This document shows, piece after piece, positions 3,101 to 50,100 of a stretch of 64,000 nt of DNA. This DNA is from Yuukianura sp. NJ FZ-2021 (Eukaryota). Made by a program: the position numbers and the translations under genes. The stretch's first letter is position 1; each line of letters opens with the position of its first letter. Location of the stretch: NCBI GenBank assembly GCA_046563655.1, contig CM102289.1, positions 9,238,001-9,302,000 of the forward strand, written 5' to 3'. The notes beneath the pieces were generated by a model that did not search any database, was not told where the DNA came from, and saw only the letters and a program-made list of their open reading frames with translations.

Positions 3101-6100
3101 CATTTCAAGGAATTCGTTAAGCATGGTGCACTTTTTTTTTTCGAAAAACCGCGGGAAAAGTTTTTTGAAGATCGTAAATCACACAAGGTGAGGACGGGAG
3201 GAAGTGACATCTCACTTAACTTTAGACAAAATTTACACGCAGTCAAGGACACCTCTATGCATTCCAGTTTTCAAAATTTCGAAACTTCCCGCTCTCTAAC
3301 TGTGTGTCATCACTTGAACATCCTGACAAGTTCAAAACGACATTTCCAATAAGTTTTCATAATGTTCGGATTTTCCCGCCATTTTTGAAACTGACATTCC
3401 CATGTCATTTTCCTCATCTCTTTAGTAGTATATTAGTTCGAGAGAATTAAAATATCAAACTTAACTTTTCAGTTCCTATTTGTCAAAAAAATGTAAAGAA
3501 AATTCTTTCAAAACATTTTTTAAACAACAGAAAGAAATCGACTATTTGAAGACACTTTTTAATCAAGATTTGTAAAATATTTTTCCAATTTTAATCCAAC
3601 CCGTTGAGGAATTTTCACCTTCATAAAACAGGCAGAAAAGAACACCTCCAATTCAACACTTGCAGAATACCGTTTTCAAAAAAATCAACATCTAGTTTTA
3701 AAAATGTTTTTTTCAAATGAAAATTGCTCAAATTTTGATTAACTCTTTATACCGGAAACTTTACTCTTGGCATCCGACCGAACTTTTGGTACATCATTCA
3801 ACTATTTTTAAAACGAAAAAAAGTTTCAAAGAACGGAAAAGAACAACAATTTTTACTTCAATTCTACGCTGCATAAATTTAGCGTCAAAAATGTTTTTTT
3901 TAGTAAAATTCGATTTTTTTTTCAAAATTTTTCAAAAAATGCCTTCTCACACCTGAAATTGCTCAAAAATGGATTAAGTTCTTGCCCAACGAACTCCCAA
4001 TTAATAACACCAAAAACTTTTCCTTCAACACAAAACTTTGAAAACAAAAAATAGGTTTCGGAGAACGGAAAAGAACAAAAACATCTTTCCATACCACGCT
4101 GCTTAAATTTACTGTCAAACCTGTACAAAAAATCATTTTTTTGAAAATTTGAAAGAATTTACCTGTACAAAGTACGCATGAAAAAATCCAGCACTGACCG
4201 TACTTGACTGGCTGGAGCGTTCTAAAATACTGTTCTAAAATTGGAACGCTTCCAGTCCAGGCTCCCGGAGCGACTCCGTCACTGTACTTGTTGTCCCAGC
4301 GACCCACCAGGAGTCCATCGTCGTCATTGGCATTCACCTACAACCAATAACATCAAATGTTAGACTGTGTTAACTTCATGTTAGCATGTCGAGAGTCTCA
4401 AAATACTAGTTTTAATTAGAAAGTGGACCATTTTGGTGAGAGCGCGGGAAACTAGAACTGGATCTCCCCGTGATACAAATGGAATTCCAGATTTCTCGAG
4501 TAGGATGCAAACGAGAGGCAGCACGCAATCATCGAATTGTCCAAAGGCCCAGTGACGCCCTTTCGTACTTTGGTAAGGACCGAACCACACTTTCCCCTTG
4601 TCCTCAAGTACATACTCCTTCAGTAGTTCAGAGTCACACATGTACGTCAAGTCATCTAAAAATATACACATTTTCAAAAAAAAAAAGTTTTATTGAAACA
4701 GATTTCAACACTGACATAAACTGTGTCTGAATTTTACACAGAAACACAAAATGATGGATTTCGCTTCAATACAACTGCAAAAAAAAAAATATGAAAAAAA
4801 AAGCACTACAATAATTAACGGCGTCTTTGGACACCACAAATTTCTCTGCAGGCTGTGAATTTTACAGTTTCTCTTTTTTTTTTCTCCAAAATTTCGAAAT
4901 TTCCTGAAAACTCATAAAAAAAAAGTTGAGGTTTTCCTACTGTTGATTTTCTGTTTGAATTTTTTTCTGTTGATGGAAAGTTGTTTAATTGAAACGAGCG
5001 GGGCTATGGGCACTTGAGACTCATTTTCTGAAAACTATGAATTATGAAAATTATTTTAAAAAATTCTGAAATTTTAGTCAAATTGGGGCAGTTTGAGAAT
5101 TCTATTGAAGTCGTAAAGTGATAGTCATAGACTTTTTTGAAATACGGAATTGAGGGGATGATGATTAGGAAGACATTTGGAGAAATGGTGAAAGTTAGGT
5201 TAGTTTTGGATCGTTTTCTGTTCCTGGAAGGGAGGCTTTTGGTTTCGTATGAGCAAAGAAGCTTTTGGTTTCGTATGGAAAAGAAGGAAATGGATGTGGA
5301 ACGTAAGCCGTAAGGGACTGTGTGGGAATAGATCCAGTGGGAATCATTATAGGTCCAAGATGGCCCATTTATTTAAAATCAACCTTATCATGCATCTCCT
5401 TTCACCCAAACTGTCTTACTTTCTCCTTTTGTTACCCGCCACGAATCCCAATCCTACTGCCCGCATATCCTATTACCAACTGATACATGTCCTTATCACA
5501 ACTTCCAGAATTTCAAAAAACTGAAATTTTGAAAAAATGGACAAATTTAAAAGTTCTTACGATGGTCCCAGGGATTGAACAGAATGTAGATATCAGTTGG
5601 ACATACGAATGTCACTGGCCCGCCACCACGAATTGAACGACTCTCCACTGTACATGTCCAAATTCCCACGCAAGTATCTGGACCAATCCGAACCTTCAAA
5701 AAATTTCAAATTTTTAGTTTTTTCAAAATTTTGCACTCGTCAATTTTTCATTTTTGCCTAGCTTTTTCAATTTTTTTAACGAATTTTGAGCCGTAGACAT
5801 GCGTCGCCAGAAAATAAAAAAGCGATGATTATTTTTATAGCCTTTGGCTAATGTAGTTTGTGAAATGGGGCGAATGAATTTTAGCACACAATGCAAAATT
5901 TGCAAAAGTAGGTCAAAGGTCAGATATCAAAAACTGATAATGTCAGAGCAAAGTGTTATTTTTGCACACTTGCCTTAAGCACACGCAACTTGTAAGCAGA
6001 AATGTGTCGAACCAAGGATGTTTGAGAAACAAAAGTGCTGAGTTCGTTAAATACTTAATGTTTTTCACTGTCAAGATAAAGGCTTTGTTGTTTTGGCAAA

Positions 6101-7726
6101 TACTAAAACCGAAAGAGTTTAAACAGCGTCAAAACGGCGCCAAATTTGAAAATTGCATAACGATTTTAGTAAGCAGTATCGAAAGCTTTTTTCCCCTAGT
6201 ATCAGCAAAATCGTCACAAATCAATTCCTAAGAGACATCGTCATCATCGCAAGCGATTTGGAAGCGATGACGCCTCTCGGCTCGAAATTTCTCTCGAGTC
6301 CAGCAGTACTGGCTCTGATTTCTCCATGGAAAAATAAGAGAAAAGCTTTTGGACGTAATTTGACACTCATGGACGGTTTGCTCATATTCGATTTGTGTGA
6401 GAACCACGTTAACGAATGGCCTTCAATAAAAAATTTTGTCGTTTATTTGATTCGTGTAACAAAATTCTGCTCCACGGTTCTTTGACACCCAGTTAGTATT
6501 CTTTAACAGGTTGCGTAATACCACAGTTGTTTACCCCAGAAATGAAAATAAGTAAAAACTGAATACCAATTCCTAAAAATGAAAATTTGGATACCAATTT
6601 CCTGTATAAAATTTGTATTAATCATCAATGCCATGGTTATGATACCCTGAAATGAAAAATGGAACCTTTTTTTTGTATTATTGAAAAACATTTGAGGTAT
6701 TACGCAACCTGTTAATGAAAACAAAACCTATTAAATATCAACAAACCGGGATTCTGCCTCACTAAAAAAAATTCAGGCCGTTCATATCCCAAAAAATTTG
6801 CGTGTCCTTATTTTCATCTAAAACCTTGAATGAAAATTATCGCCGTGCCTGAGTGACCTTCCAGAAGTGTCCGAGTACCGGCTTTGAGAAACGCAGTGTG
6901 CACCGTTTGTAGTAGTAGAGTTGGAGTAGGCCGTTACCTCAACGCTTATGGCATTCTTATCATGTCCTGCAATTCGACAGGCCCAAGAGGTTTGAGTCAG
7001 ATCGAACGGCCGCTTCTCCGCATTTAGAGTGAATTTAGTTCCGTTGAGCGGAGAGGGCTTCGGGCCGAAGTTGAAACTGAGCTTAATAAAGTCTCGGGTG
7101 GGGTCGTACGACCGAACTGGCGTTTGGAGAGCCACGAAGAACGTTTGACCTCTACGCAAAACTGGTGACCCCCGCTCAACAATTTCAAATTTGGAAGTGT
7201 GATGAGTCTGCCCATTCTCCTTCGCATAAAAATAAATGTCGCCGATTCGCAAAGTCGCTGTTTCTGGCAGGGGCCCTTGGGCACCAGCTGCAAAAAGAAA
7301 ATCAATGCACCTAAAATTTCAATTTTTGTCTAAATTGCATATTTTCAAAAAGTATTTTCAAAAATTCAAAACTTTTCAAAAAAGACAGTTGACATTGATT
7401 CAAAATGTGTAGCCATAAAACTTTAAACCGATCAGTAACTTGAATTTGGCACAAAAAAACTTTTTGAAAATAAAAACTAATAAATTGAGCATTACATTGG
7501 CTGCTGTAGTTTGAATGTAAGGCAAAATAATGTGAAATTAGCGGGAAAATTTGAGTTTGGCGGGAAAATTTTTAACGGGGCGGGAAAATTTGAAATTTAA
7601 AACATGAAAGTACATACCTAGAAGGCGTTGTTCCATGTCTCTATCTTTTGCCTGTGCATCGGCATATGTCCGCTGCAGTCGTCCCACTAAACATGCGTAG
7701 TAGGCTGCGTAATTTGCTGAATCCAT
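127..7726 (-). CDS. Tg: Transglutaminase (protein-glutamine gamma-glutamyltransferase, hemocyte TGase/annulin-like), 16 coding exons, ~753 aa
   Basis: Exons: 7726-7618, 7287-6938, 5693-5561, 4655-4429, 4337-4163, 2181-2024, 1951-1937, 1844-1748, 1682-1514, 1448-1351, 1280-1239, 1154-1030, 962-839, 731-571, 490-354, 268-127. All junctions are GT..AG and phase-consistent; total 2262 nt. Motifs: LRRGQTF, YILFNPW, WAFGQF, YGQCWIF (catalytic Cys), [23 protein letters not shown] (His), [11 protein letters not shown] (Asp), CGPAS, FQNPL. The first exon is the least certain. Confidence 0.96.
6503..6715. mobile_element. MITE (non-autonomous DNA transposon), TTAA-CAGGTTG family, in TGase intron 2
   Basis: Perfect 20-bp inverted termini TTAACAGGTTGCGTAATACC ... 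GGTATTACGCAACCTGTTAA; a related copy lies at 41002-41211. Confidence 0.8.
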
Positions 7727-29100: not shown

Positions 29101-32100
29101 AGGAAAAGGGCGGCAGAATTTGAATCTTATGATGGTCTACCAGTGCGGGTTGGTTAAATTTTTACTTTGGATAAGACTGCTCAACCAAGTAGTAAATGTT
29201 ACTTTTCCTGTAACTCGTAAGCTGTGCAATCAGGTTAGCTAACACTTTCCATTGTAATCCATTGTAACACTATTCATAGATTTTGGCGTGCTTAGATTTT
29301 TGTTGCTTAGATAATGGCATGCTTCGCTAATTAATGTGGTTTTCGGAGTTTCTGCTTCCTTGAAGCGGCAATGGCAAACCTTGAAAATTATGCTTATATA
29401 ACCAGCTGTAATTAGCGTAACAGCTTCGTAGTTTGGACATTGGGCATTGGACATTCAAGTAAATTGCTTGAAGATGTATCTGTTTCGAGTATTTTCACTT
29501 TGGGTTTTTACTTTCAAGTATCTACCTTCACTTGCTGGTGGAGAAATAAGATTGACTGTAAGGAATTCAAATTCAAAAGGGCAGCAAACCATTTTATACT
29601 TGTAGTACATAATTATAATTATAAATAATATAAAAATATAAATATAAAAAATAGTATTAAAGTACGACTTTACTGCAGGATGATAAATTGTACATTGCTG
29701 GTAACGAGACTCAAATGGAAGTTCTCGATGAAGAACTATTAAGATTCAAAATAAATGAAACGAATTGCAGATTATACGAAATCAAGGTCGAGTACGTCCA
29801 GATTCACCGCAATGCGCTGAAGTATTTTGGAAGTTGCAAAAACTTACATACCATAAAGTTCGACTCGGTTAGTTGGCACTGGGAATTGAGTAAAAAAAGC
29901 TTGCAACATTTGATACATCTTCCAAATTTGGAAACATATTGGTGTACAACGCTAGTCGACGATTCCACTCGATGGAATGTATACGACGATCTGGAACAAG
30001 TGATCTTCTTCTACATAGATTCTGAACATAATGATTCTGCTTGGGGTTCATTTCCATCACTAGATAGCATTCAGATTATTTGGAAAATTGAACCACATGG
30101 ATATTTAGAGCTAACAGTAAAAATCGACTACCGATTGGATGAATACTCAAATATTATTATGGAGAGAAAAAATCAAATAATTGCAAAGAAAATCAGAGAC
30201 AAAACAACTTGGAAATTGCTTTATGGTATGCTACCAAAAGCAGAATTTGTTGAAATAGAAGACTGCTTTCTCAACATACAGCTTTTGGACTTTAGATCAG
30301 CAATAGAGTTGACGTTGAAAAATAACGATCTGGTTGACGGAAATATGGCGCAAATTCTCATAAAATCCTCAATATTGATGAAAAAGCTTGTGATCTACGC
30401 GACCGAAGATGAAGCTATCGACGTAGCACTTCTCTCAAAAAATCTTGTTCGTCTTGAAACAAATCGACTCAGTTTCCGTTGGAGCTCCACGATACCACCA
30501 GCTCAAAACTTCCCTGACATGGATACATTAGTAGTCAAATATGGTGACCTCGACCCTAAACTTCTAAAAACCACGAGGTTAAGGGAATTGGTCATAGAAA
30601 ACACCCTTCTGTGGAACGCCACTGTTGCGGACATGGGAGCAACTATGCACAGCATAATACTTCTGTCTCTTTTATATCAATATTTTGACGGGGTTTGTCC
30701 CTCAGTGCAACTCGACACCATTTCACATCTTCCCTTGGAAGGGATGATTCTACAAGATGCATACATTTCAGCTGGACAGAAACTAGAACCATTAGCCTCC
30801 ATTGAAAGCTTATTTGTGTTCAGATGCGAGTGGGATCCTGTGTTGATAGCACATTTTGATGTTTTATTTCCAAACTTAAGAAATCTAGCGATAGACATTG
30901 GAGATGTTTTGTCTTTTTCATTAATGCAAAACATATTTGCGGTATCTCGTGTGCTAAACATTGGAATCGCCATTCCACTGGATACGACACCACAAAAAAT
31001 TCAGGAGCTTACACATCGCTTACAACATTTATTCAACGTATCATTATTGTTGGACCAAATTCCAAGCGCAGGATCCGCTGTTGCAATACGTCGACCGAAC
31101 CCTTCTGCTGACTTTGTCTACCATAGTACATCGAATACCAGCACGGACAAAGCAAACGAAATTTTCTACAGGAACAGTCGGATTGAAATTCTTTTGAAGC
31201 ATTACGGATATTCTCTAGAGGAATTCAGGCAAGTGACGATAGACCTAGTTTACAGAATACACACGTACTACGTCTTTGCAGTATGTACCACTGGAATTGC
31301 ATGCAACATTTTGAGCACTCTTGTGCTTCTGCGCAAGGCTATGCACAGCTCCACTAGTGTACTGCTACTGGCACTTGCTTGCGCAGACTCATTATATCTT
31401 CTAACATCGTTCTCTACCGTTCAAGAGTTCCAGAATTTATTTCAGTTTAAGATGCAACGGTCTGCTTTACATGGTTACGTTGCTTACCCATTAAACAAAA
31501 CAAGTAAAACAAAAAACAATACAAATTAATAGAAATATTCAAAATAAAACCATCTCTTGCATGATAATTTTTTCATGATTTTAGTGTACACAGCCTCAGT
31601 TTACATGACGATTCTCATCACAGTGGAGAGATTTGTAGCCATATCAAAACCTCTTCAAGTGTCGCTCATCTTCACAATAAAGAAGACAACTAGACGCGCA
31701 GTCGCAGTTTTCATGTGGGCGGCAATTTTGAACATCACAAGATGGTTTGAATTCATCAAATGGAACTACGAAGCTTCTTCGCCATACTGGAGTTCAAACT
31801 ACCCAAAACAGCTTCACAGATTCCCATTGTACAGACTACTCTACCAGCAAGTTGTTTGGTACACCTTCACCTACGTTTTGCCATTTGTCGCCATTGCAAC
31901 CATCAACATCCTCATTCTCATCAAGGTATTTGAATTCCTTGCTTCTCATTGGCTATTGAAACAAAGTTTTTGATTGCCTAACTGATTGTGTTGGCCATAG
32001 GTGAGAAAAGCAGCTGAATCCAGAAGAGCTGTAGCTGTAGGACAGCAGGATGCTGATGAGAAGTCTTTGAGCAGAATGCTGCTGACAGTAGTTTTTGTGT

Positions 32101-35100
32101 TCTTCGTGTGTAACTGCGTGAGTGCCATCATCAACTGGGTCTTTGTTTCTAAGGGGGTGGAGCCAGAGGTGGCAGAAATATTTGCCTGTTTGCCAATTAT
32201 CTTGAACTCTTCGGTCAACTTTCTCCTCTACTTCTTCATGGGCACAAAATTCAGAAAAGAATTCAAATGCATGATTGCAGAAATCAAAACCCGTGTTAGA
32301 AATGTGTTTCACTTTTGAAGCAATTTCAAAAGAAAAAAAAAGAGAGAGAATCTAAAAATTTGTTAGTTATACTGCTGATTTTTTTTTGTAAAAAATTTAT
32401 GAAGTTAAGAATAATGTATTGAGTTGGAAGGGTGGAGATGAAAGGAAGATGTAAAATTGTCCAATCAATCCTCCATGCAACAAAACACGAAAATTCAGCC
32501 GAAGAAAATACGAGATCAGCCCTCTCTTTTCCCGCACTTTTTCTTTTCCAGTTTGAATTAATATTCAGTGCACGGAGAAAGACAAAAATTATTTTATAGG
32601 TTACAAAATCATCTTTTCATCCCCCAGAGAACCCTCTTCCATTTCATAACTTTTCCACATAGCTCTTCCTCCTATAAGGTTAGGCTATGTTAGGCTAACG
32701 TTAGTAAAAGTAAGGATTGGTACGTAAAGACTTCAATGCTCTCACGAATCCTAGAAATCTAGAGAAAGTAGAAAGAGTTGGAGAAATCTACAAAAAAGAA
32801 GAAGAAAATCTCTTGAGGAATAGCTTGTTTCAAATAAAAGATTATAATCCTCCGCGGATTAACCCGGCTTGGATTATAATCGATTAATTTGAGTGTACTC
32901 GATTTTTTCGTCCGATTGTCAGCTGATGTGGAAGGGCGGGAATTGAAAATTTCAAAAATAACAACAGTGGGTGGTGATGGTCGGGTGGAGGGAGCAGATT
33001 AATCCAAGAGAATCGTGGTTTTTGTGGATTCTTTTTTGGCCGATTATAATCCAAAAAGTGGCGCACTGCGCCTGCGCACCACCTCAGATTAATCTGGCTT
33101 GGCAGATTAATCTGAAAAGCGATTATAATCGCTTTATTTGAAACAAGCTAATGAAAACACGTTTGGAAATAAAAATTCCTTGTGGAGTCGTACACAATTC
33201 CCCTCCACTTACTATACTACGCACATGTAAGTTCTTCCAGAAGAGGTGAAATTTCTAAATGCTAGTTTATGTTGAAAATGTTAGGTTATGTTAGTTCCTT
33301 GGAGCAAAAATTTCCAAACTATAAAAATCTGTGCTTTCTTATTTTGTTGATCCTAATCTTGTAGAGTCATATAAAAGGAAATAAAACTTGGTTTTACGGC
33401 GCACAACTCAAATATTAATTGGACTTAAATGCCTTCTCGTTCCAACAGGAAGCTCTTCGTGCCAAGAGGTACACAATCTCTACCAAAAAAATTTCGAAAT
33501 TTTTTTCAAAAAATTTTTTTTTTACTTAAATTGTATACAGAAGGTTGATGTTGGTGAAAGTTGGATTTGATGAGTGTAGTAACAACCGAATGCAGTGAAC
33601 TGAAAAAGAGAAAGTATAAACGCAAAACTAAAAAGTCTGAAACTGAGTCCAGAACTGTATTTGATCACGTTCTGGACATTATGACAAGTTCAGTCGCAGT
33701 AGTTAGAGTCACGTCGACATAAAAATGGACAAAAAACCTAACATTTGTTATGTTATGTTTTTTCTACCAAAGTTTCAAGAAAACTCTCAGTGTGGTCACA
33801 ATCTGGAAAAAACTTTAGAGCAAAAGTGACCTCAAAAGTTAGTAAAAGAAAATAATGTGTTTCATTGCTCACAAAACGGAAAATAAAAGTTCTGAAATTT
33901 TTTGGAAACAAAAAGAATGAAAGTTTTTTTGGAAGAAACTGATTTTTTTTTTGGAGAAACTAAAGTTTTTTGTCCTTGGTGCCTGACACCTTGTGCACTT
34001 AAGTTGTGCTCAAATGGATGAACAATGGAACAGTCCTTGGCCATTTAGCCGTCCTTTTGGTAACGAAAGATGAAGTATTTCTTTATGAGTTTCAGAAAAA
34101 AAAAGTTGAGTTCTGCAGTGCCGTAACGCGAGACGGCACTGCAGAATTTCCGAGGGTTTGTTACATGATTGCACAGAAATGCAATACGGAAGTGAGACAT
34201 GGAAGTTTCAACTTTCTCCGCACTTAAGTCTGACACATTTCGATCCGAATCTGACGCGCCATTGGTTGGTTCCAAAAAAAAGTTTCAGTTTACTTTGCAG
34301 ACTGTTAGTTTTTGAAATCAAAAAGTTTTTTTGACGGACGATGTTTGAACAGCCTGAAAGTTTAAACTGGTTTGTCGTCGCCTTTGCATATAAAAAAGTT
34401 TAAACGTAACATAAATAACATGAGTTAAAAATTGATACAAAAAACTTCAGAAAACGATTTTGCTTCCATTTTGAAAAATTTATTTCCACAGTGCGATATT
34501 CTGTCCTCCTTCCAATTTTTATTTCAAAAGGGCGTTAGCTCAAGAAGTCAAAAGAGTAAAACATGAATATTTTAGACAATTTTGGATTTAAAATCAATAG
34601 GCTATGCCTCTGTTTCGAATTTCGCAAATTCTAACAGTTAATTAAAGGTTTTAAAAAAATTGAAAAAAGGAGAAAGACCTCCCACTTTGAAAGTTTTTGG
34701 AACAGGAATGGAGAACAATGGCACCAAATTGCCATTTTGTGAAATGTAGTGAAAGGAGTAAGTGCTTTTTAGAACACGTTATTATGAAAAGATACACGAA
34801 ATTGTAGAAATGTGCAACCATTTCGACACTACCGCACTCGCTTCCAAAAAGTGTCCAACATCCAGTAAACACAAAATTTAACTTTTCAAATGACATTCAA
34901 AATAATTAAATCATGTAGTTGAAGTACGATATTATTTTAAATGGGAATGTTAAACTTTTTCGTTTTTGCAAAACACGCTTGTTCAAAAAACTTAGTTTTT
35001 CCTCCGAAAACTCAGAAATTTTTTCTTGTAGTTCTAGTTTTGTTAAATTGTAATACAAAAAGTTTTGGCAACTTTCTCTAGAAAACTATAACTTTCTGAG

Positions 35101-38100: not shown

Positions 38101-41100
38101 TTTTGATAAACTAAAATCAGTTTATGAAACTTCAAAACGATTTTGAAATTTGAAACACGTTTTTCGGGATTTTGGGCGGAGAGAATGAGAAATGAGCGGT
38201 TGAGTGCACAACGGCGCATTTTAAATGGCATTATCAAAGTAGCAGAGGGAGCCAAGAAATGACAATACATCGCATTATGACTCTCCCGCTTTTTTCGGGA
38301 GAAAGGAAAAGCAAACCCGGGTTTTCTGGCACTAAAGAGGGAGGATGTAAAAAGAGAAAAAAGGCTTTTGAATGAAAAAATTCAAGGAGAAAGTTTTACT
38401 TCCTGTGACAATTTTCATAAGATCTCGACTTAAACCAACCGTAAAAAGTTGGGGGAAGGATGATGAAGGAATTTGAGGTTGACGAATTTGAAAACTCCCG
38501 CCATTTTGAATTAAGAAACGGCGCGTCGCATTGTTAAAAACGACATAAAAAAGCATTTCATTGTGCACAAACACAATTTTGTGCATTCAATTTAAAAAAA
38601 AAAACACCGACTTGGTTTTTTCTATCTTTTTTGTGACAATTCAAAAAAGCATCAGAAAAATTTGTTTAGAATTTCGCCTGAATAAATTCTAATATCATTC
38701 ACTCGTTTCCTTCTAGATTTGACAAACTCGAAGGAACAAAATATTTTTTGATTCTTGATACAACACAACTTTTTTTTTTCAAAAATTGAATTTCATGGAT
38801 TTGAAATCTTTCAAAGAAAGAAAAAAAGGAAAAGCGTGAGAACTTTCTCCAGCAGGCATCTTTCATAGTAAAAAAAAATCTATACTTTGCATTTTATAGT
38901 CAAAGTTTATTTGGTATAAAACAAGTCTTAAAAATATTTTACATGCAGGAAATATAGCTCTATATAAAAATTCCTAAAAATTCTAAAGGAAGTAGATGAT
39001 GATGAAGCCAAAAAAAAAATGAAAAAAAGCTTCCTTTTCATCCAAAAAATTTCTGGACCTTTTTTCACGCTTGATGAATTCTTTTCTCAAAAACCTCCCC
39101 TGCTCGTCTGAACGAATGAAATTTTTTGAAAATAAATGTCTCATTTAAAGCAATTTGTGAGAAATCTAAGACTCTAAAAATGAATAGTCAAAAACCTTGT
39201 GTTCGAAAAGGCAAAAAGTGAAAAGTGTTTTAATTGATTTGGAAAAGATGAAAGGATCAGCAAGCTCCCTTCAACTTTTGAAAATCCATCAGTGTTAAAA
39301 CTAAAATTTTGAAAATTGAGCAAACTTTGAACTGTTTGAACAGGCGTCAATACCAAACGCATGTAATACATTCGTACGAGTGAGTTTTAATCAAGGAAAG
39401 GAGATGATGATGTTACAAACTTTGCAAAGTCCATTTCACCAACTTTCTGTGCAAAAGTTTTCTTGTTTTGGCGGGAGAAAGTTTAAATGGCTACATCAGT
39501 GAAAGTGTGTAGGAGTGAGTGAAAACCGGAAAACCAGAAATCCTGTCTAATTATTTCCCACATTCAACCCACACTCAACACATTTTGCTTTTCAGTCAAA
39601 ACCAAAATCAAATTGTAATTTGCACAAAATACTGAAATTTCGAAATTACAACGATTAAAGTAACAGCAATATTTTAGAGGTTTGACCATTAGCATTATGA
39701 GAGCCAGCTTGTTTGTATTGCTTTTTCCACATTGATTACAAATTTAACTTACTTCGAAATAGGGCGTGGCACAAAAAAGTAAACGATGGAAAAATAATTT
39801 GTTTATTTAAGAAATTATGGGGGGAAAACTGTAGCAAATAAAATAAAAACTAAAAATTTTAAACAGTTTTAGAAAACAAAATGTTGGTCATGCCACAATA
39901 TATTAATAACTGTTGGAAAGCTTCAAAATTTGGAAAACTGAAAACCTGAAATGAAAAACATAAAGTGACTGAAAACCAGAAATGAAAAACATAAAGTGAA
40001 CCAAAAGCAAAAGCAAAAACTAAAACTTACTCTAAACTCTTTGTTTTCTGTGACATCGAAGAAGCTTCAGAGCTCATTACAAGAAGGGCCCTTGAAGGGC
40101 CCCCTTGTATTGTTTGAGCTCTTGAGACTCTTCTTTTTAGCAAGAAGTGAAAGTTTGTAGACTTAGAAAGTGGAGGAAGGTTTGAAAGAGTGTGAGAATT
40201 AGAAGAATGAAGTTGAAGATGACTTTGTTAGGACAGAGGAAAGTTGTTAGAGTTGAGCCCCCATTTTATAACTCAACTTCCAGAAGACACTTTAATTTCA
40301 TCACAGTCACTGTCCATCTTGACGATGGGAGAAGAGCTTCCAGAAATCGTCTGGAAGTGCTTTTTAGCTCAAGTGTTGAAATGGAGAGAGCAAATGACAC
40401 TCCAGAGGGAATGGGACTCAGAAACTATAAAATTCTAGCCTCCTCAGCACCACTTTTTCATCTCTTCTTCACAAATTAAACTTAATTGGGATCAAACTTA
40501 AGGAATTAAGCAAAAGAAAGTTTTTGAAAACTAAAATTTTCAGGAAAAGTGTGAAAACAAAGTCTAAGATTTTGGAATTTTGATGACTTAGAAAAATAGA
40601 GGAAGTGAAAAGAAAATTTGAAAATTAGGGAGAATTTTTTGAACCAATTTTTTCGCAATTTTCTGAAAATCAATGGCTTTTTTTCTAGAATTTTTTTGAA
40701 GCTAGAATGACCTAAATACATAATTTTTGTAACATGCGTGCATACCATAATAGTCGAGTTCCGACTGGAAGTTATCTTGTCCGTTTCCAGTTTGAAGGGA
40801 GAAGAAAACTGCTCAGGTTTCCCGCCATTTCCTTCTCTTCTCATATTATTCATTTCCTATCTCCATTTTTATCTTGTCACTTTTTCATGTTCGCTTACTC
40901 ACAACTAAAATGCAAAAAGAAATTTTCCTATTGGTTCTTTTTATAAATAGAAGTTTCCTATTGGCCTATCTTTAAACAAGGTTTTTTGACTTTAATTTTC
41001 TTTAACAGGTTGGGTAATACCTCATGTTTTTTTGATTTTGTAAAAAGAAAGTGTCTTTTCATTTCAGGTAATTGTAGCCATAACAATACAGCCGATTTTT

Positions 41101-44100
41101 TTAAATTTTGCATACGAATTGGTAGCAATTTTTCGGATTGGTACTAAAATTGGTACCAATTTTTCTTTTTCGTTTTTCTATCAACAGCTGTGGTAGTATC
41201 CAACCTGTTAAAAAAAATTAACTCTCCGTTGTCAAGGAACCTTGATTTTTAAAAGAACGCTTACTCCTATTGGTCTATCTTTCAAACAAGTATTCCCATT
41301 GGTTTATCTTAAAAAGAAAGCTTCCTATTGGTTCTCACGATAAATGAAAGCTTCCTATTGGTTCCTTCTCTTTAAGAGCTATAAACAAACTGTGAAACTT
41401 ATCTGATTTTTTATGAACATGAACGTTTGCAGCAACAGAATTTTGAACTTTGTTTAACTTTAAGAAGCTTCCACATGTTTATTCGGCTACATGCGGAGTT
41501 TGTGTAACTTTGTTTCTACTTAGATACATATCTTTTAAGATACTATTTGGAAGAAACTGTGGAAAGAGGACCAAAGAAAGTTCAAAGAATCTGGAGAAGA
41601 CGTTTTCCCACGAGATTTACCATATTTTAGTCAAAGCGAAATTTCATGTAATAGAAAAGTTTGGTTTTAAGCCAGTTGCCCTTGTGACAAAAACTTAAAA
41701 GAAACTTACGACTTGATTCTCTCATCTTCAGTTAAAACTTTTAACACATTTTCGTCCTTTTATGATCTCTCATCCACTTTCTCCATCTATGCAAACTTTC
41801 CCGCCGCATATTTCCAATTTTTTAACTCAAAATTTCATAAATTCAACTTTCGACTAAAAAATGAAGTTTTGAATCAAAAATTTAACAAGCATGATTCAGT
41901 AGAACCTGTTAAAATTAAAAGCTGGCTTTTGGAATGAGCAGAGCAAAAAATCAGGCTTCTCAAAATTAAAAATTGTCTTCATTTTTTTTTTTGGGTAAAA
42001 TTAAACCTTTCTTTTTTGAAAAAGCGGAGCTGTGGTTTTTGGCTGAAAAAACTAATTTGAGTTCTCCATTCTGCTTTGCCTTATCGATTTACACTCGAGA
42101 GAGCTGTGTCTATAAATCCAACTGGGCTGTTCCAGAAGAAGCCTTCTGTGGACTAAGTTATAGTAGGGGGAAGTATTCATGATGAAAGCTTCACAAGATA
42201 GAAAAGAAAGAAGAAAGTCATGTCAAGGAAGAAACAGAAAGTAATTTCCAACTTCTTTTTACATCCACAATTTCTCATTTCCCGCACTTCCTCAAAAAGA
42301 GACGCTGTACAGTCATTTCCTTTGTGTAAAATGATTAAACCGCAGGCTCATCTTGAGACGGGTGGGGTCAAAGGTCACTGACCTTGAAATGTTGAATAAC
42401 AAAACTTTTATGGTTTTAACGTTGACCTTTGCATAATTTCAACTTTTAGTACGACAAAGTTCAGTTTTGCTAAGGTGAGTTTCGTCAAAAAATCAAGCCA
42501 GCCTAACCTCAAAATTCAAAATTCCGACACAAAGCTTACAAATTTTGAGTTTCTGATTAATTGTGGTTACACTTTGAAATTTGTTTGCAGTGTAGTTTTC
42601 AGTTTTGCTGATTAGCGTTTTTGTTTACATTAGTTTAACCTAACATTTTGTAAACATTTCAAATCATTAATCCCGCTTCGATTTTTTGCTTAGACTGAAA
42701 ATCGAAATTTTTTGTTCAAAGTTTATTGAAGTAAAGGAAAAGCTTTAACTTTCTGCTCCGGTTTGTAGGTTATCAAATTACGAATTCCTCATTAACGGCG
42801 GTAAATGCAAAAGCGAACAGCCTGAACTTGGAGTTTGTGGGGAAGGCTGATGTTAATCAAAACACAAAGAACACGGCACAGTCCATGTACTATGTATATT
42901 AGGTTATGTTAAGTTAACCTAATCTCATGTATATTTATGAGATCACTAAGATAACTTCAGATCGATTCCAGAACTGTCTTCCAACGCACTGGATAGATTC
43001 TTACTTTCGAAGCCTCCTTGTACTATTTTTTTTCTTTACATGAACTTACTTTTCTACTAGAACGATTTTTTCGAAGAGAAAGTTTGAAGTTTGGTTCACG
43101 AAAAAATCTTTAGTAGAATTTCCGTACAGGAACAAACTTTGTACTCCAATTTTATACCTGGAAGGCACAAAAAGATACTTTTCACAGTGAAAGTTCACAA
43201 CATTGAAAATAAGTTTATAAGAAGACGCGCGGGAAAAAACTTTGAATTTTCGTCTGTACATACCCTCCGGTTCCAATTTTTTTTCAATCTGCTTTCTCTC
43301 TTTTTCAACTTTTCGTCAATATTTGACTTTTCAAGAGTACGGAAATGATTTGGGTTACTTCAAATTTTGGAAAAAGAATTTTCACCTCGGCATTTCTAAA
43401 AAAAATAAGAAAAAACTTTTTTTTGAAACTTTTTAGTTCCTGAGGCACTTTCACCCTTATTTTGATTATTTCTTCCCGGTTTTCCAGATTCACTTTCACT
43501 GTTTGAATATTTTTGTTTAAATTCAAAACCTTGAACCCTCAGGTTGAGAAAAACTGTAAAAAATGTGAAAAATAAGGGCTTAGTATAGTTTTTTGAAAAT
43601 CTAAAAAGAAATTCGAAACAAGAGGATTTGGAAAAAGAGATTCCAAAAGAGAAATGGGCGACTTTCTCCATACATTTATGGGTGGCCCTTAATGTTTATT
43701 ACTCCCAAAACCAGTTTTCTTGTTATTTTCAAAAAAAGAAACAATTTTCAAGGCGCCAACATTAGGAAATCCGCTTCTATTATTTATTTTTTCAAAGCAA
43801 TTAACAACGCCATTTCAAAAAAAAAGATTGAATTTTCTCGCTCCTTTTAAAGCTTTCATAAATTTTTTCCAAGGAAAACTTAAGAAAAATTTTCTTCAAA
43901 AAGAGCGTATGTTTCTTTACGTAAAACCTGAATGATTCCAACTGTTCAAAAAAAATTTCAACACTTTCCGTTTTTTGAAACATTTTGAACTAAAAAAAAA
44001 CGTGGTCCCCAGTGTGTGATTTGAAGAGACTTTCTCTTTGGGATTTTTTGTGTGAAAGTTAAGGACAGGAAGTGCGGAATTTATCACTTCTAGCATCCGA

Positions 44101-47100
44101 TTTCGCATGTGAAGGCTCCAACTTTTTGTCACTGGAGTCCTTAAGGCTCCTTAGGTGCGGAACTTAACAGGACACTCTTGGGCGGAAACTGCTGCACCGC
44201 GTCTTTTTTGACATACAAAATCAAAAACATAGAAATGTCCAAAACCAACAGTTTCTTGAGAGTTCGGCGATTCATGGACGATTTTTCTCCGTCCATTGTA
44301 AATCCCGTTTATAAATTTCCGTCCGTGAGTGTCGTGTAACGTGTACGGAAGGAGTGAGAATCTTGATAGGAAGGAGAGGAGACAGTATGGAAACAAGATA
44401 AGGTGAAAGTAAGTTCTACCACAGGCGAAGTAAAAAGCCAAAGTCTTTTGCACTTTGGGAGAAAAGTAATAAAATGTTCTGACAACTAACTGTAAATCTC
44501 TGGATTTTTTAAAAACTTTTCCCACCAGCTTACAACGTCTTAAAAAACTTTACTCAGTGTGGGAACCAGGCGCCGGAGAAAGTGAAACAAGAAAAAAGTT
44601 AAAAACTAAGCAGATGGGGTCTAACCTTGTTTAAAGCGGAATTTTAACTTTCAAAAAAAAGTTTTCGAAAAGTCAAATCCTTCGTTAGTAACTACCTTGA
44701 AAATTTTCAGAAATGTTAAAAGTGAAAATCTGACATCATAATTAATACATGGTGAATTTTCAACCTTTTTAAAAAGTAAGAAAAGCTTTGGAACTAAAAA
44801 GAAGGCGTAAAACAGATTCCGTTTTTTTTAGTGTGAAAGGTTAAAAGCTAAGTATTTTCGAAATTGAAGCCAAACTGCATAAAATTTTCAAAATTTCTTT
44901 GAAAATGACCATGTTTGGTGTGAATTTCATTAAATGGTGCGTGTGTAGTTGAATTTGAAGTTGGTGGGAAGCGTTTCTGTGTTTGAAAGTGTAAAATGGA
45001 TAATCAGATGAGAAAAGTTTCGCGTGTGACAAAACGTAATTTATCAGACTCAAGTACAAAAGTTTTTGAGTAGGTCATAGTTACAACGTAAACCGAAAAA
45101 GAACCTTTTTGTCCTGTATAGTTCCAAAATCGCAATTTTCCTTTGAACTTTCCCTGTAAGTTTATGATAGATTTAGGTTAGGTGAAAGCGTTGCGTTCCC
45201 ATTGTTGCCGTAGTGCATTAAAATGAAAAATGGGTGAAAAGTAAGATTTTGCATAATTTTAATGGAGCTTCTTCTTCCATTTTGGCTTAGGAACGTTTTC
45301 TGGAAGGAAGAATTATCTGTCGGGTGGATTTTGGGAGCAGCCTTTTGCGAAGCCCTACTTTGAGAACTCAACAAAGCGAGACGTTACGACCACAGTTGGG
45401 CAAACGGCCTACCTCCACTGCAGAGTTCGCAATCTGGGAGATCGAGCCGTAAGTCATTTCCTAAACTTTTACATTATCCAGAATTCAATCTTCCCAACCT
45501 TTTGCAATTTCATAATGCCTCCAATTTTCTGGCCGGATGAACACCTTTGCCAACATTCAAATTTTCAAAATGGGGAAGAGAAGGTGAAAAATCACACGAA
45601 AATACAAGCGAAGGTTTCGCCTTACTCCAACCCTCAAGCCCTAAACGCTTCTGTCTTTTCTTAGAACAAAATTTTGATTTTTGATTACAAAATTTTTATT
45701 TTTTATCGGATTCTAAGATTTTTCAAGGAGCAATAGCACAAGCTAAGAAATAATTAGTTAGCTAGGTGTTGTACTATGAAATACGATTTGGAAAAGTGTT
45801 AGATTTTCTGTTTGAAAAATATTTCAGCAGTGACACAAATTTCTAAGACGATTTTTGATTTCTGCAATCATGCGTGTAAATTCTTTTCTGAACTTTGTGC
45901 CCATGAAGAAGTAGAGGAGAAAGTTGACTGAAGAGTTCAAAATGATTGGCAAACAGGCAAATATTTCTGCCACCTCTGGCTCCACCCCCTTAGAAACAAA
46001 GATCCAGTTGATGATGGCACTCACGCAGTTACACACGAAAAACACAAAAACTACAGTCAGCAGCATTTTGCTCAAAGACTTCTCATCAGCGTCCTGCTGT
46101 CCCGCAGCTACAGCTCTTCTGGCTTCAGCTGCTTTTCTAACCTATAGTAAGGACCATCAGTTAGCCAATCAAAAACGGTTTCGATAGCCGATGAGAAGCA
46201 AGGAATTAAAATACCTTGATGAGAATGAGGATGTTGATGGTTGCGATGGAGGCAAATGGAAGGACGTAGGTGAAGGTGTACCAAACAACTTTCTGGTAAA
46301 GTAGTCTATACAGTGGAAATCTGTGAAGCTGTTTTGGGTAGTTTGAACTCCAGTATGGCGAAGAAGCTTCGTAGTTCCATTTGATGAATTCAAACCATCT
46401 TGTGATGTTTAAAATCGCCGCCCAAACAAAGACTGCAACTGCGCGTCTAGTTGTCTTTTTTATTGTGAAGATGAGCGACACTTGAAGGGGTTTTGATATG
46501 GCTAAAAATCTCTCCACTGTGATGAGAATCGTCATGTAAACTGAGGCTGTGTACACTAAAATCATGAAAATATTATCTCCAAGATATAGTTTTATTATGA
46601 ATATTTCTATTAATTTGTATTTTTTGTTTTACTTGTTTTGTTCAATGGGTAAGCAACGTAACCGTGTAAAGCAGACCGTTGTATCTTAAACTCAAATAAA
46701 TTCTGGAACTCATGTACGGTAGAGAACGATGTTAGAAGATAGAAGAAGTCTGCGCAAGCAAGTGCCAGGAGCAGCACACTAGTGGAGCTGTACATTGCCT
46801 TGCGCAGAAGCACAAGAGTGCTCAAAATGTTGCATACAATTCCAGTGGCGCATACTGCAACGACGTAGTATCTCTGTATTCTGCAAACCAGGTCTATCGT
46901 CACTTGACTGAAATCCTCTAGAGAATATCCGTAGTGCTTCAAAAGAATTGCAATCCGATTGTTTCTAAAGGCGATGTTGAGTGGTTCATCGGTGGCGATA
47001 TCCCATGTATCATCGTAGACAAAATCAGCAGCAGCGTACGCTCGACGTAGTGCAACCGCGGATCCTGCCCGTGGAATTTGATCCAATAATGATACATTGA

Positions 47101-50100
47101 ATACGTGTTGTAGGCGATGTGTAAGCTCCTCAATTTTTTGAAATGTCGTATCCAGTGGAATACTAATAAAAATGTTTTGCAACTGAGATACTGCGACTAG
47201 GTTTTGTAGTAATGACCCAGACAAAACATCTCCAATATCAATCGCTATGTCTTTTAAGTTTGGAAATAAAATATCAATCTCTTCTATCAACACAGGATCC
47301 CACTCGCATCTAAACACACCTAACTCTGTAACGTAAGCTAATGCTTTTGGTTTCTGTCCAGCTGAGACGTATACATCTTGTAGAATGACCGCCTGCGGCA
47401 GAAGATGTGAAATGATGTCGAGCTGCACTGAGGGACAAACCGCGTCAAAATGCTGACATCCAATAGACAGAGTCTTTATACCGTGTATTCCAGCTCCAAA
47501 ATCCGCAACAGTGGCGTTCCACAGAAGGGTGTTGTCAATGATCAACACATCCATGCTCGAGGAGTTTAGAAGTTTAAGGTCGAGGTCACCATATCTGACT
47601 ACTAATTTTTCCATGTCAGGGAAGTTTCGAGCTGGTGGTATCGTAGAACTCCAACGGAAACTGAGACGATTGGTGTGAAGATAAACAAGTTTTTCCGGGA
47701 GTAGGGCTATGTCGATAGCTTCATCTTCTGTCGCGTAGATCTCAAGCCTTTTCATCAATATTGACGATCGTTTGAGAATTTCCGCCATATTTCCGTGAAT
47801 GAGATAGTTATTTCTCAACGTCAACTCTGTTACTGATCTGAAGTGCAGAAGCTGTACGTTCAACAAGCAGTCTTCTATTTCAACAATTTCTGCTTGTGGT
47901 AGCATAGTATAAAGCAAATTCCAAGTTATTTTGTCTCTGATTTCCTTTGCAATCATTTTATTTTGTTTCTTCTCCATTATCTCTGAGTCGCCATCCCATC
48001 GGTAGTGCACTTTTATTGAAAGTTCAAAATATCCATGTGATTCAATTTTCCAAATAATCCGAATGCTATGTAGTAATGGAAATGAATCCCACCCAGAATT
48101 AGTATGTTCAGAGTCTATGTAGAAGAAGATCACTTGTTTCAGATCGTCGTCTCCATTCCATCGAGTGGAATCGTCGACAATCAAAATACACCGATATGTT
48201 TCCAAATTTGGAAGATGTATCAAATGTTGCAAGCTTTTTTTACTCAAATCCCAGTGCCAACTAACAGAATCGAACTTTATGGTAGTTAAGTTTTTGCAAT
48301 TTCCAAAATACTTCAAAAGCGCACTGCGATGAATCTGGACGTACTCGAACTCGATTTCATGTAATGTGCAATTCGTTTTATTCATGTTGAATCTCAGTAA
48401 TTCTTCATCGAAAACTTCCATTTGAGTGGCGTTACCAGCAATGTATAATTCATTATCCTGTATTAAAGTTGTTCTTTCAAACTAGCTTTATATTATTATT
48501 TTGTAATTAGTTAAAACTAGTTAAAATTTTATGCTAGAAAAACTTTGAAGATTTTAAGTTTTAATCTTTCAATTTCTTACGGTCAAACGAATTTTTCCAA
48601 GAGCAAGTGAATGTAGTGTGTTGAAAATTAAACCCCAAGTTGAAAATACTCGGAACAGATACATTTCGAAGCGATTTGTTTGCATGGTTCTAGAACAATG
48701 TCAAAACTGCGAACTAATTGGGATAATTACAGTTTGTTTTATAAATTAATTTTCCTGGTTTGACCGCTCAAATGGAAAAGAAACTTTATCTCCCACATTC
48801 AAAGGAAACAATTAGCACTTATTGGCAAACTCTTAGTAAGATTCTTTATCCTAAAAAATAATTAGACTCTAAGTCGATTGAATACAACGCACGTTTAAAA
48901 AAGTAACTTAGTTGGATTAAATTAGTTAAACAATTAATTAATAAAAATGTAATTAATTAACTTGGCTAACGTCCATAACAGGAACAAGGAAACCTTGCAA
49001 ACGTTCCACTAGGATTTAAAAAAAATTAACTGTTAATTTCACTTTCTAAAAATACGTCTTAAAGTATTAAAAATTTCGAAAAACAAAGTCAACTCATACG
49101 GAATCCTAATGCTCTTAGTTGTTTTTGAAACTGCGTAATTAGATTTTGAATTTTTATAAGTGTTATGCATGAACATTGAAAAAAAAATTTCGAAAACAGA
49201 TTTTTTTTTGTTTTTTAACGAAAGCAATTTTTAATGTTAAGCTTGAGCAGTTTTAGAACTTTTTGCTGCTGTTAAGTTCTATTCATTTGCAATAAGTACG
49301 CCCACAACTTGTGCATCATAATTACACTTCTGGGAGACACTTTTCCTCTGAAATGTCCGATTCCTCTGAAAAGATGCTTTCACCGTATATTGGAGATACC
49401 GTACAAATAACTATAAAACCAAATAGACAGGAAATTTATTTTCATGAGTAAAGGATAAGCGCGCCAAAATTCCGATTTTTCGGATACTCCCGCTTCTCTT
49501 TTTCAAAAAGTTTCCGTGCCATTCATTCCCCCATTTTGAAGTTTCCATTCTTTGATACCTCCACAATACTTAAAATGGATGAAGGAATGTCCCATTATAA
49601 AAGCTTAGAGTTACTTAACTTATAATAGCTTTAGAACCTCTCAAAAGCAGCTCTCATACTCCCTTGCTTTCACCATACACTTCATTTCCAGTATGAAACA
49701 GTTAGGCTAAAAATAGGTTTTGTTAGGTTAGCCTAACATTAGGCTTTTAGTCTTGCATATTCCTATTGTCTCTGCCAGAAGTAGGTTATTAAAGGAGCTT
49801 AAGACCAAGTCTTTGTTTCTTAAAAGAGTGAAAGTGAGCGGAAGAAGGGAGAAAGGGAATCCTTATGACTAAAGTTCGTTTCAGATTTTAATCAAAATGT
49901 AATTTATTTGAACCAAAGTGTAATTCCCGCTCTTTTGAAATTTGAATCCCATTGTACTTAGGTTTCTTGGATCCGGAAGCGTGACCTCCATATCCTAACT
50001 GTAGGAATTTTGACTTATACGGGAGATCAAAGGTTCCAGTCACTCCATTCAGATGGGACGGACGAATGGACACTCAAAATAAGCTCACCTCAAATCAGAG

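Follow-up and report, generated by a model that had tools for sequence, protein, structure and literature searches.

To our knowledge, leucine-rich repeat (LRR) ectodomains on G-protein-coupled receptors (GPCRs) have been described almost exclusively in the hormone-binding LGR clade, whose evolution is conservative. LRRs also form hypervariable recognition receptors, among them the plant NLR/RLP resistance proteins, the lamprey VLRs and some TLRs. Nematode class-A GPCRs of the Srw/FMRFamide type have short N-termini. The LGR family includes the glycoprotein-hormone receptors, LGR4-6 and the relaxin receptors; an account of it (PMC9545775) describes 'novel LGRs' from Nematostella and Trichoplax, and defines canonical LGRs by a Cys-rich cap before the LRRs and a Cys-rich hinge before the first transmembrane segment (TM1). 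Here we describe two neighbouring genes, A and B, in a 64-kb window of Yuukianura sp. NJ FZ-2021 (the whole stretch of 64,000 nucleotides that was analysed; contig CM102289.1, positions 9,238,001 to 9,302,000), which join a predicted LRR ectodomain to a class-A seven-transmembrane (7TM) half. The reading that we favour, with moderate confidence, is that A and B are two functional inverted paralogues in which the exposed x positions of the repeat motif LxxLxLxx have been replaced faster than neutral, driven towards different ligand specificities.

A and B resemble the LGRs in carrying an N-terminal LRR solenoid ahead of a class-A 7TM, with the LGR4 and TSHR ectodomains among the structural matches, and probably follow the same logic, with the ligand on the LRR and the signal passed on to the 7TM. 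They differ in having neither a Cys-rich N-cap nor a Cys-rich hinge: Cys residues occur in the A ectodomain only at positions 30, 53, 89, 196, 340 and 383, with none in A beyond residue 383, and the hinge (residues 433-529) lacks them in A and has a single one in B. Further differences are the lack of a Pfam LRR match, 7TM pieces that are nearest to peptide receptors, and an ectodomain encoded together with TM1-2 mostly in a single exon. Since both the Cys-rich cap and the Cys-rich hinge are absent, the two proteins would work like LGRs without being canonical LGRs. With the hypervariable LRR receptors, as these are generally characterized, A and B share a hydrophobic scaffold that is conserved, replacements concentrated at the xxLxLxx x positions and a ratio of non-synonymous to synonymous divergence (dN/dS, omega) above 1 at x; they differ in that a GPCR takes the place of a kinase, TIR or NB-ARC as output module, in that only two copies are seen, and in that the window contains no cassette-type donors. 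A role of A and B in immune or non-self recognition, drawn from this analogy, is unproven. The third comparison is with the nematode Srw/FMRFamide-type peptide receptor-like class-A GPCRs (PF10324): the likeness lies in the Srw matches of TM1-2 and TM6-7, and the difference in the 530-residue LRR ectodomain that A and B carry fused in front.

The window is AT-rich eukaryotic DNA (36% GC) with short GT-AG introns. Copy A (29474-32318, forward strand) and copy B (48664-45824, reverse strand) each encode 855 amino acids in four exons; both genes are intact and have GT-AG splice sites at identical positions. A single blastn high-scoring segment pair connects them, running from A 29375-32336 to B 48762-45804 with 84.97% identity over 2974 columns. 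Homology dies out approximately 90 bp 5' of the start codon and 20 bp 3' of the stop, and tblastn reveals no third copy within the 64 kb. Nearly the whole ectodomain and TM1-2 are encoded by exon 2, and positions 29679-31265, to which an earlier sequence-only reading had drawn attention, are precisely the 529-codon ectodomain portion of this exon in A; the B counterpart lies inverted at 48457-46871. The single-codon insertion and deletion noted in that reading are both found in the alignment: at column 75 B has a codon more than A, and at column 485 A has one more than B. It is very improbable that the comparison is one of alleles or errors, with A and B arising from haplotypes put together wrongly or from a chimeric inverted join. 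The stretch is found in one sample only, in three DNA runs and no listed RNA run, and no record extends across the whole 19.8 kb, which would be compatible with such an artefact; the copies, however, are 15% different and separated by two codon indels, their flanks are mutually unrelated, and error-free short run contigs lie on each copy separately at no less than 95% (for example 29472-29915, 30602-31036 and 46807-47239).

The two halves of the protein diverge at very different rates. Amino acid identity between A and B is 70.3% in the ectodomain (528 aligned codons), in agreement with the earlier estimate of about 70%, and reaches 88.6% in TM1-2 and 92% over the 7TM as a whole. Exon 3 is 95.6% identical in protein, with five of 114 residues changed as had been counted by eye, and 93.9% identical in nucleotides; exon 4 is 89.5% identical in protein (11/105 changed) and 92.7% in nucleotides. 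The claim that exons 3-4 exceed 90% identity is thus correct for their nucleotides and for the exon 3 protein, but not for the exon 4 protein. Intron 3 can indeed still be aligned (11 differences in 73 columns), as can intron 2 (5/77).

Silent divergence does not follow the same division. Fourfold degenerate sites differ at 16/138 positions in the ectodomain (11.6%) vs 13/119 in the 7TM (10.9%), and NG86 synonymous differences amount to 72.2/337.8 vs 34.0/200.3 (p = 0.26), whereas non-synonymous differences amount to 190.8/1246.2 vs 27.0/693.7 (p = 4e-16). The resulting dN values are approximately 4-fold apart (0.17 in the ectodomain, 0.04 in the 7TM); dS depends on the method, with 0.18-0.25 in the ectodomain and 0.15-0.19 in the 7TM. 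Exons 2-4 and introns 2-3, with 709 silent sites between them, show neither a rate breakpoint (max-chi2 p = 0.41) nor an over-long identical silent run (longest 39 sites, p = 0.57). The contrast between ectodomain and 7TM therefore stems from dN and not from dS, and gene conversion of the 3' end alone, which the sequence-only reading had offered as a possible cause, is rejected. That reading had proposed a comparison of dN/dS and dS as its own check: the check yields neither an ectodomain ratio well below 1 with randomly placed substitutions nor a lower dS in the 7TM. The omega of 0.21-0.28 in the 7TM indicates that both copies are maintained. Divergence is also symmetric when judged against distant homologues, the outgroup state being retained by A at 34 sites and by B at 29 (p = 0.61), and neither copy is decaying by itself.

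The fold of the ectodomain was assessed from a predicted structure. An AlphaFold2 model built from a seven-row alignment (mean pLDDT 76.5, pTM 0.75) has regularly spaced strands, and every listed Foldseek match is an LRR protein, with TIR1 as the best (E 1.4e-5) and internalin A, TLR2 and LGR4 among the others. VIA-align superposes 250-370 residues of the model on FBXL17, SDS22, LGR4, internalins and decorin with Z scores of 13-15.5 and a root-mean-square deviation of 3.2-5 Å, although Z values near 13 are commonplace for repeat proteins according to the tool's own warning; TSHR also matched. The ESM Atlas returned weak LRR leads only (scores 0.88-0.89). We aligned 16 repeats on the first residue of the first DSSP strand, designated offset 0. 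Offsets -2, +1 and +3, which define the LxxLxLxx register, are hydrophobic in 94% of A's 16 repeats and in 89-98% of distant-homologue residues, and the x offsets are the least conserved positions among distant homologues. DSSP strands are spaced 20-31 residues apart, and 44 and 60 residues over insertions. The LRR receptor ectodomain proposed earlier is in this way supported at the level of fold and motif in the predicted model, not by curated sequence models.

Replacements between A and B are phased with these repeats. Amino acid differences are clustered (198 runs vs 222.8 expected, p = 0.006), and their frequency by offset is high at exposed positions (12/16 at -1, 10/16 at 0, 8/16 at +2, 6/16 at +4 and 9/15 at -3) and low at the scaffold (2/16 at both +1 and +3), with 0-4 of 16 at each of the offsets +5 to +13. 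Offsets -4 to +3 differ at 50/126 positions vs 19/128 at offsets +5 to +12, a contrast that none of 10,000 permutations matched. The canonical x set of xxLxLxx, taken as offsets -1, 0, +2, +4 and +5 (80 residues), accounts for 38/80 differences vs 120/449 at other ectodomain sites (p = 3e-4), and for 19/80 vs 47/449 radical changes with a negative BLOSUM62 score (p = 0.003). The earlier observation that changes are clustered and concentrated at strand segments is borne out by these counts, and the six variable and four invariant segments quoted for it are all present as quoted. The supposed invariant linkers between repeats turn out to be the second half of each repeat (xxNxL and the ascending or convex part), which is conserved family-wide and holds the family-invariant residues R267, W268, P274, F278, P279, L311, W312 and N313. 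Pure silent sites differ equally inside the motifs (10/84) and outside (31/267), so the excess reflects neither locally raised mutation nor an old island that escaped conversion.

We used a pairwise codon maximum likelihood model of the Goldman-Yang type, in which the site partitions were fixed and had one synonymous rate in common. With dS shared gene-wide, omega is 2.04 at x sites, 0.52 at the L scaffold, 0.86 in the rest of the ectodomain, 0.215 in the 7TM and 1.5 in the signal exon; fixing omega at 1 for x sites (omega_x) is rejected with 2ΔlnL = 13.06 (p = 3e-4). Restricted to ectodomain codons (dS 0.21), the model gives an omega_x of 1.86 vs 0.75 for the rest (p = 0.0034), and in LRR9-16 with a local dS of 0.25 omega_x is 2.48 (p = 0.0027). 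The estimate stays within 1.75-1.87 over three codon-frequency models and within 1.65-2.02 when any single repeat is left out, where the likelihood-ratio test (LRT) statistic is 5.2-10.6. From offset -1 to +4, omega takes values of 3.5, 2.9, 0.37, 2.6, 0.29 and 1.4, the alternation expected of a beta-strand. A model-free comparison points the same way: second codon positions differ at 25/80 x sites vs 38/355 neutral sites (p = 1.3e-5), the latter comprising the fourfold sites of exons 2-4 (257) and the interiors of introns 2 and 3 (98).

A number of results weigh against positive selection at the x sites. Over the whole ectodomain omega is below 1, from 0.68 (NG86) to 0.93 (YN00), and the x codons by themselves, with their own dS, give an omega of 1.50 that does not depart significantly from 1 (LRT 1.2, p = 0.27). 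NG86 on the 80 x codons yields 0.97, owing to a path-averaged pS of 0.277 on just 45.5 sites. There is no significant signal in LRR1-8, where omega_x is 1.19-1.57 (p = 0.21 at 1.57). All codon tests compare two sequences, A and B, with no polarity and no site model, and the partition is not blind, as the repeat register was fixed with the difference map in view. Among 157 replaced codons 50 differ at two or three bases, and multi-nucleotide mutation is able to inflate omega. Classification by DSSP gives no strand enrichment (strand 49/175, helix 44/146, coil 65/208, p = 0.78), nor is there any when only positions without hydrophobic residues in distant homologues are counted (24/77 vs 65/192); the DSSP test is too coarse, because the model strands start after two exposed positions and extend into the conserved repeat half. 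Pfam detects no LRR or other family in the ectodomain of either copy at E up to 1, and the placement of replacements on the concave face rests on the LRR consensus and the DSSP assignment of a predicted model. The earlier proposal of diversifying selection on the ectodomain coupled to a constant 7TM is supported for the x sites (omega_x 1.9-2.0 with a synonymous rate shared across the ectodomain or the gene) and the 7TM (0.21), but not for the ectodomain as a whole or for the x codons taken alone.

The weightiest result against selection at x lies upstream of the ectodomain. In the block formed by the 5' flank together with exon 1 and intron 1, silent and non-coding sites differ at 69/200 positions (34.5%) vs 77/709 downstream (Fisher p = 7e-14), and silent divergence falls sharply where intron 1 meets exon 2, the first half of the ectodomain having 12/168. 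This jump suggests either a fast-evolving 5' block, intron 1 being AT-rich and of low complexity, or a duplication of greater age whose exons 2-4 were homogenised later. Under later homogenisation, the omega analysis still covers the time since that event. The dN at x sites (0.33-0.5) would be approximately neutral if neutral divergence really stood at 35%, with silent sites under constraint. The interiors of introns 2 and 3 (9/98), however, agree with the fourfold sites (29/257) at approximately 11%, which speaks against constrained synonymous sites.

These values bear directly on relaxed constraint as the only cause, an explanation in which the exposed positions of a redundant ectodomain drift neutrally and omega exceeds 1 because the neutral rate is underestimated. 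We regard it as unlikely, though it accounts for several features at once: the ectodomain-wide omega, the non-significant value of the x codons alone and their NG86 estimate, the near-neutral dN at x if the 5' block sets the neutral rate, and the fact that the x positions are also the most variable ones among distant homologues. Replacements furthermore avoid family-conserved positions (4/64 vs 91/258), as simple constraint predicts. Drift, on the other hand, is unable to outpace the neutral rate, and the two concordant neutral proxies lie three-fold below the second-position divergence at x sites; an omega_x of 1 is rejected by the LRT whether dS is taken gene-wide, from the ectodomain only or locally.

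The drop in silent divergence at exon 2 would also be expected if an old duplication had been followed by conversion, with exons 2-4 homogenised and the strand-coding patches either escaping or re-diversifying to leave a mosaic. Exchange with unseen family members would be possible, the differences are grouped in short multi-base patches, and silent divergence tends to rise in the neighbourhood of replacements (14/80 vs 19/185, p = 0.11) and in the LRR9-16 motifs (7/35 vs 10/89). All of these silent-site trends, however, are non-significant, the motif silent divergence of 12-20% is far below that of the 5' block, exons 2-4 show neither the breakpoint nor the over-long identical run, and donor copies are absent from the window. 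Even in a mosaic, selection would still be needed to keep replacements only at exposed positions, and we consider this explanation improbable.

Under the preferred reading of two paralogues diverging in ligand specificity, each protein would be a lineage-restricted receptor composed of a signal peptide, a 16-repeat LRR solenoid, a Cys-free helical hinge and a class-A, Srw/peptide-receptor-like 7TM. Exon 1 encodes a hydrophobic N-terminus, which we infer from its hydrophobicity to be a putative signal peptide. Since the duplication, or since the last homogenisation of exons 2-4, the 7TM/G-protein module would have been under purifying selection in both copies, while the solvent-exposed x residues of LxxLxLxx, chiefly in LRR9-16, gathered replacements faster than local neutral sites. 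As to location, ligand and signalling, we infer that the signal peptide would send the glycosylated ectodomain outside the cell, that the ligand would be bound by the concave sheet of LRR9-16 near the hinge, and that the 7TM would pass the signal to a G protein. The concave sheet would most probably be the ligand-binding face. The paralogues would then have a common relay and differing binding surfaces, as in LGR-type and hypervariable LRR recognition receptors. If this is true, A and B would represent a GPCR-coupled analogue of the hypervariable LRR recognition receptors, and a natural receptor pair set apart by little more than the binding surface, with which LRR specificity could be mapped onto GPCR activation.

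The signalling half has its own affinities. Pfam Srw (PF10324, cutoff 22.2 bits) matches the TM1-2 piece with 23.4 bits (positions 2-54) and the TM6-7 piece with 26.5 bits (positions 219-316). The TM3-5 piece matches positions 70-178 of 7tm_1 with E 1.2e-6 and 28.7 bits, below the cutoff of 30.5 bits, and Srx also matched. Two segments read from the translation, ERF after TM3 and NSSVNFLLY in TM7, we take to be motifs of the E/DRY and N(P)xxY types. The best solved-structure matches of the 7TM pieces are the neurotensin, TRH, orexin, neuromedin-U, opioid and somatostatin receptors; the 19, 60 and 60 matches listed for TM3-5, TM6-7 and a four-sequence TM6-7 profile, respectively, include no LGR-type chain. 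By sequence, the 7TM appears closer to class-A receptors of the peptide-receptor/Srw-like kind than to canonical LGRs.

Relatives of the pair are scarce. Among 1.84 billion representative proteins we found four, all unnamed metagenome proteins of 25-29% identity; together with the lack of a Pfam LRR match, this leaves the family almost unseen by standard annotation. The homologous-protein search with the exon 2 protein and with an alignment returned nothing at E <= 0.001. Three metagenome relative loci have the same exon plan and are 50-61% identical to A in the 7TM exons and 26-30% identical in the ectodomain, the latter being too distant for codon analysis. One relative, L002 (3072-5120), is pseudogene-like, with an in-frame stop between the ectodomain exon halves and a shortened exon 3 without the ERF segment. 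Full-text literature contains no account of an LRR ectodomain on a Srw/peptide-receptor-like 7TM that we could find, which is not proof of absence in print, and neither LRR nor ectodomain is mentioned in one paper on class-A GPCRs of Lophotrochozoa. An origin of the LRR-GPCR architecture on a different 7TM background is suggested by the evidence, with diversifying pressure at the presumptive binding face. An independent fusion of LRR ectodomain and 7TM outside the LGR clade is likely but not proven. A wider and more doubtful proposal, which we advance only tentatively, is that A and B belong to an independently invented LRR-GPCR family of an invertebrate lineage, in which a peptide-receptor/Srw-like 7TM and a cap-less, Pfam-invisible LRR solenoid would form an R-gene/VLR-like recognition repertoire with an immune or chemosensory role. 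Its members would arise by local duplication and then diverge under positive selection at the concave face, with an unchanging G-protein module.

Table 1. Positions of the parts of the A and B genes within the window; LRR, hinge and insertion assignments follow the predicted model.
Feature	Position	Strand	Basis or remark
A, 5' block (5' flank, exon 1, intron 1)	29382..29678	+	compared with B 48755-48458
A, exon 1	29474..29557	+	ATG, 28 codons, phase-0 GT donor, in frame with exon 2; exon also in B
A, exon 2	29679..31503	+	608-codon open frame, AG acceptor and GT donor
A, exon 2, ectodomain	29679..31265	+	
A, exon 2, TM1-TM2	31266..31503	+	Srw match on TM1-2
A, exon 3	31585..31925	+	TM3-TM5, ERF motif ending TM3; 7tm_1 match
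A, exon 4	32001..32318	+	TM6-TM7, NSSVNFLLY motif, C-terminal tail, stop codon; Srw match
A, predicted LRR1-16	29679..30974	+	model strands, hydrophobic register, LRR-only fold matches
A, LxxLxLxx starts, LRR1-8	29679, 29772, 29844, 29928, 30060, 30240, 30300, 30378	+	
A, LxxLxLxx starts, LRR9-16	30444, 30519, 30579, 30654, 30735, 30801, 30876, 30951	+	
A, A/B-specific insertion between LRR5 and LRR6	30090..30203	+	ectodomain residues 138-175
A, LRR9-16 hot zone of exposed-position replacement	30444..30974	+	offsets -4 to +3 differ at 33/64, +5 to +12 at 8/64
A, predicted helical Cys-free hinge, LRR solenoid to TM1	30975..31265	+	pLDDT 40-68 at residues 451-529
B, exon 1	48581..48664	-	from A/B alignment; ATG and GT donor intact
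B, exon 2	46633..48457	-	open frame, same splice sites
B, exon 2, ectodomain	46871..48457	-	
B, exon 2, TM1-2	46633..46870	-	
B, exon 3	46215..46555	-	from A/B alignment
B, exon 4	45824..46141	-	from A/B alignment; includes stop codon

In the insertion between LRR5 and LRR6, residues 149-165 are missing from the distant homologues, and strands 141-153 and 159-170 are modelled as a long beta-hairpin. The insertion is heavily replaced between A and B and is reminiscent of the 'island' inserts in other LRR receptors; its omega of 1.38 is not significant. The hinge has an omega of 0.81. N-x-S/T sequons turn over between the copies, with six in the A ectodomain and seven in that of B, and only four positions shared.

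The sequencing runs differ from the assembled window at a number of positions. At 31346 and 31349, in the part of A coding for TM1-2, all contigs of the three runs have T in place of the C of the window; these two synonymous changes are the only ones in A among the 40 listed of 264 variants. The spacer has many further run variants, so that the sample must be polymorphic or unlike the assembled haplotype. Within the spacer, 40437-41758 and 32505-33165 reach 10-60 times the word depth of the surrounding contig, with many joints and loose ends, which suggests high-copy repeats or transposon fragments. Elsewhere in the window, exons of a transglutaminase gene lie at 3963-7318 on the reverse strand, with a Pfam Transglut_N match (E 1.2e-18) on 6818-7318 and a core-like open frame at 3963-4337.

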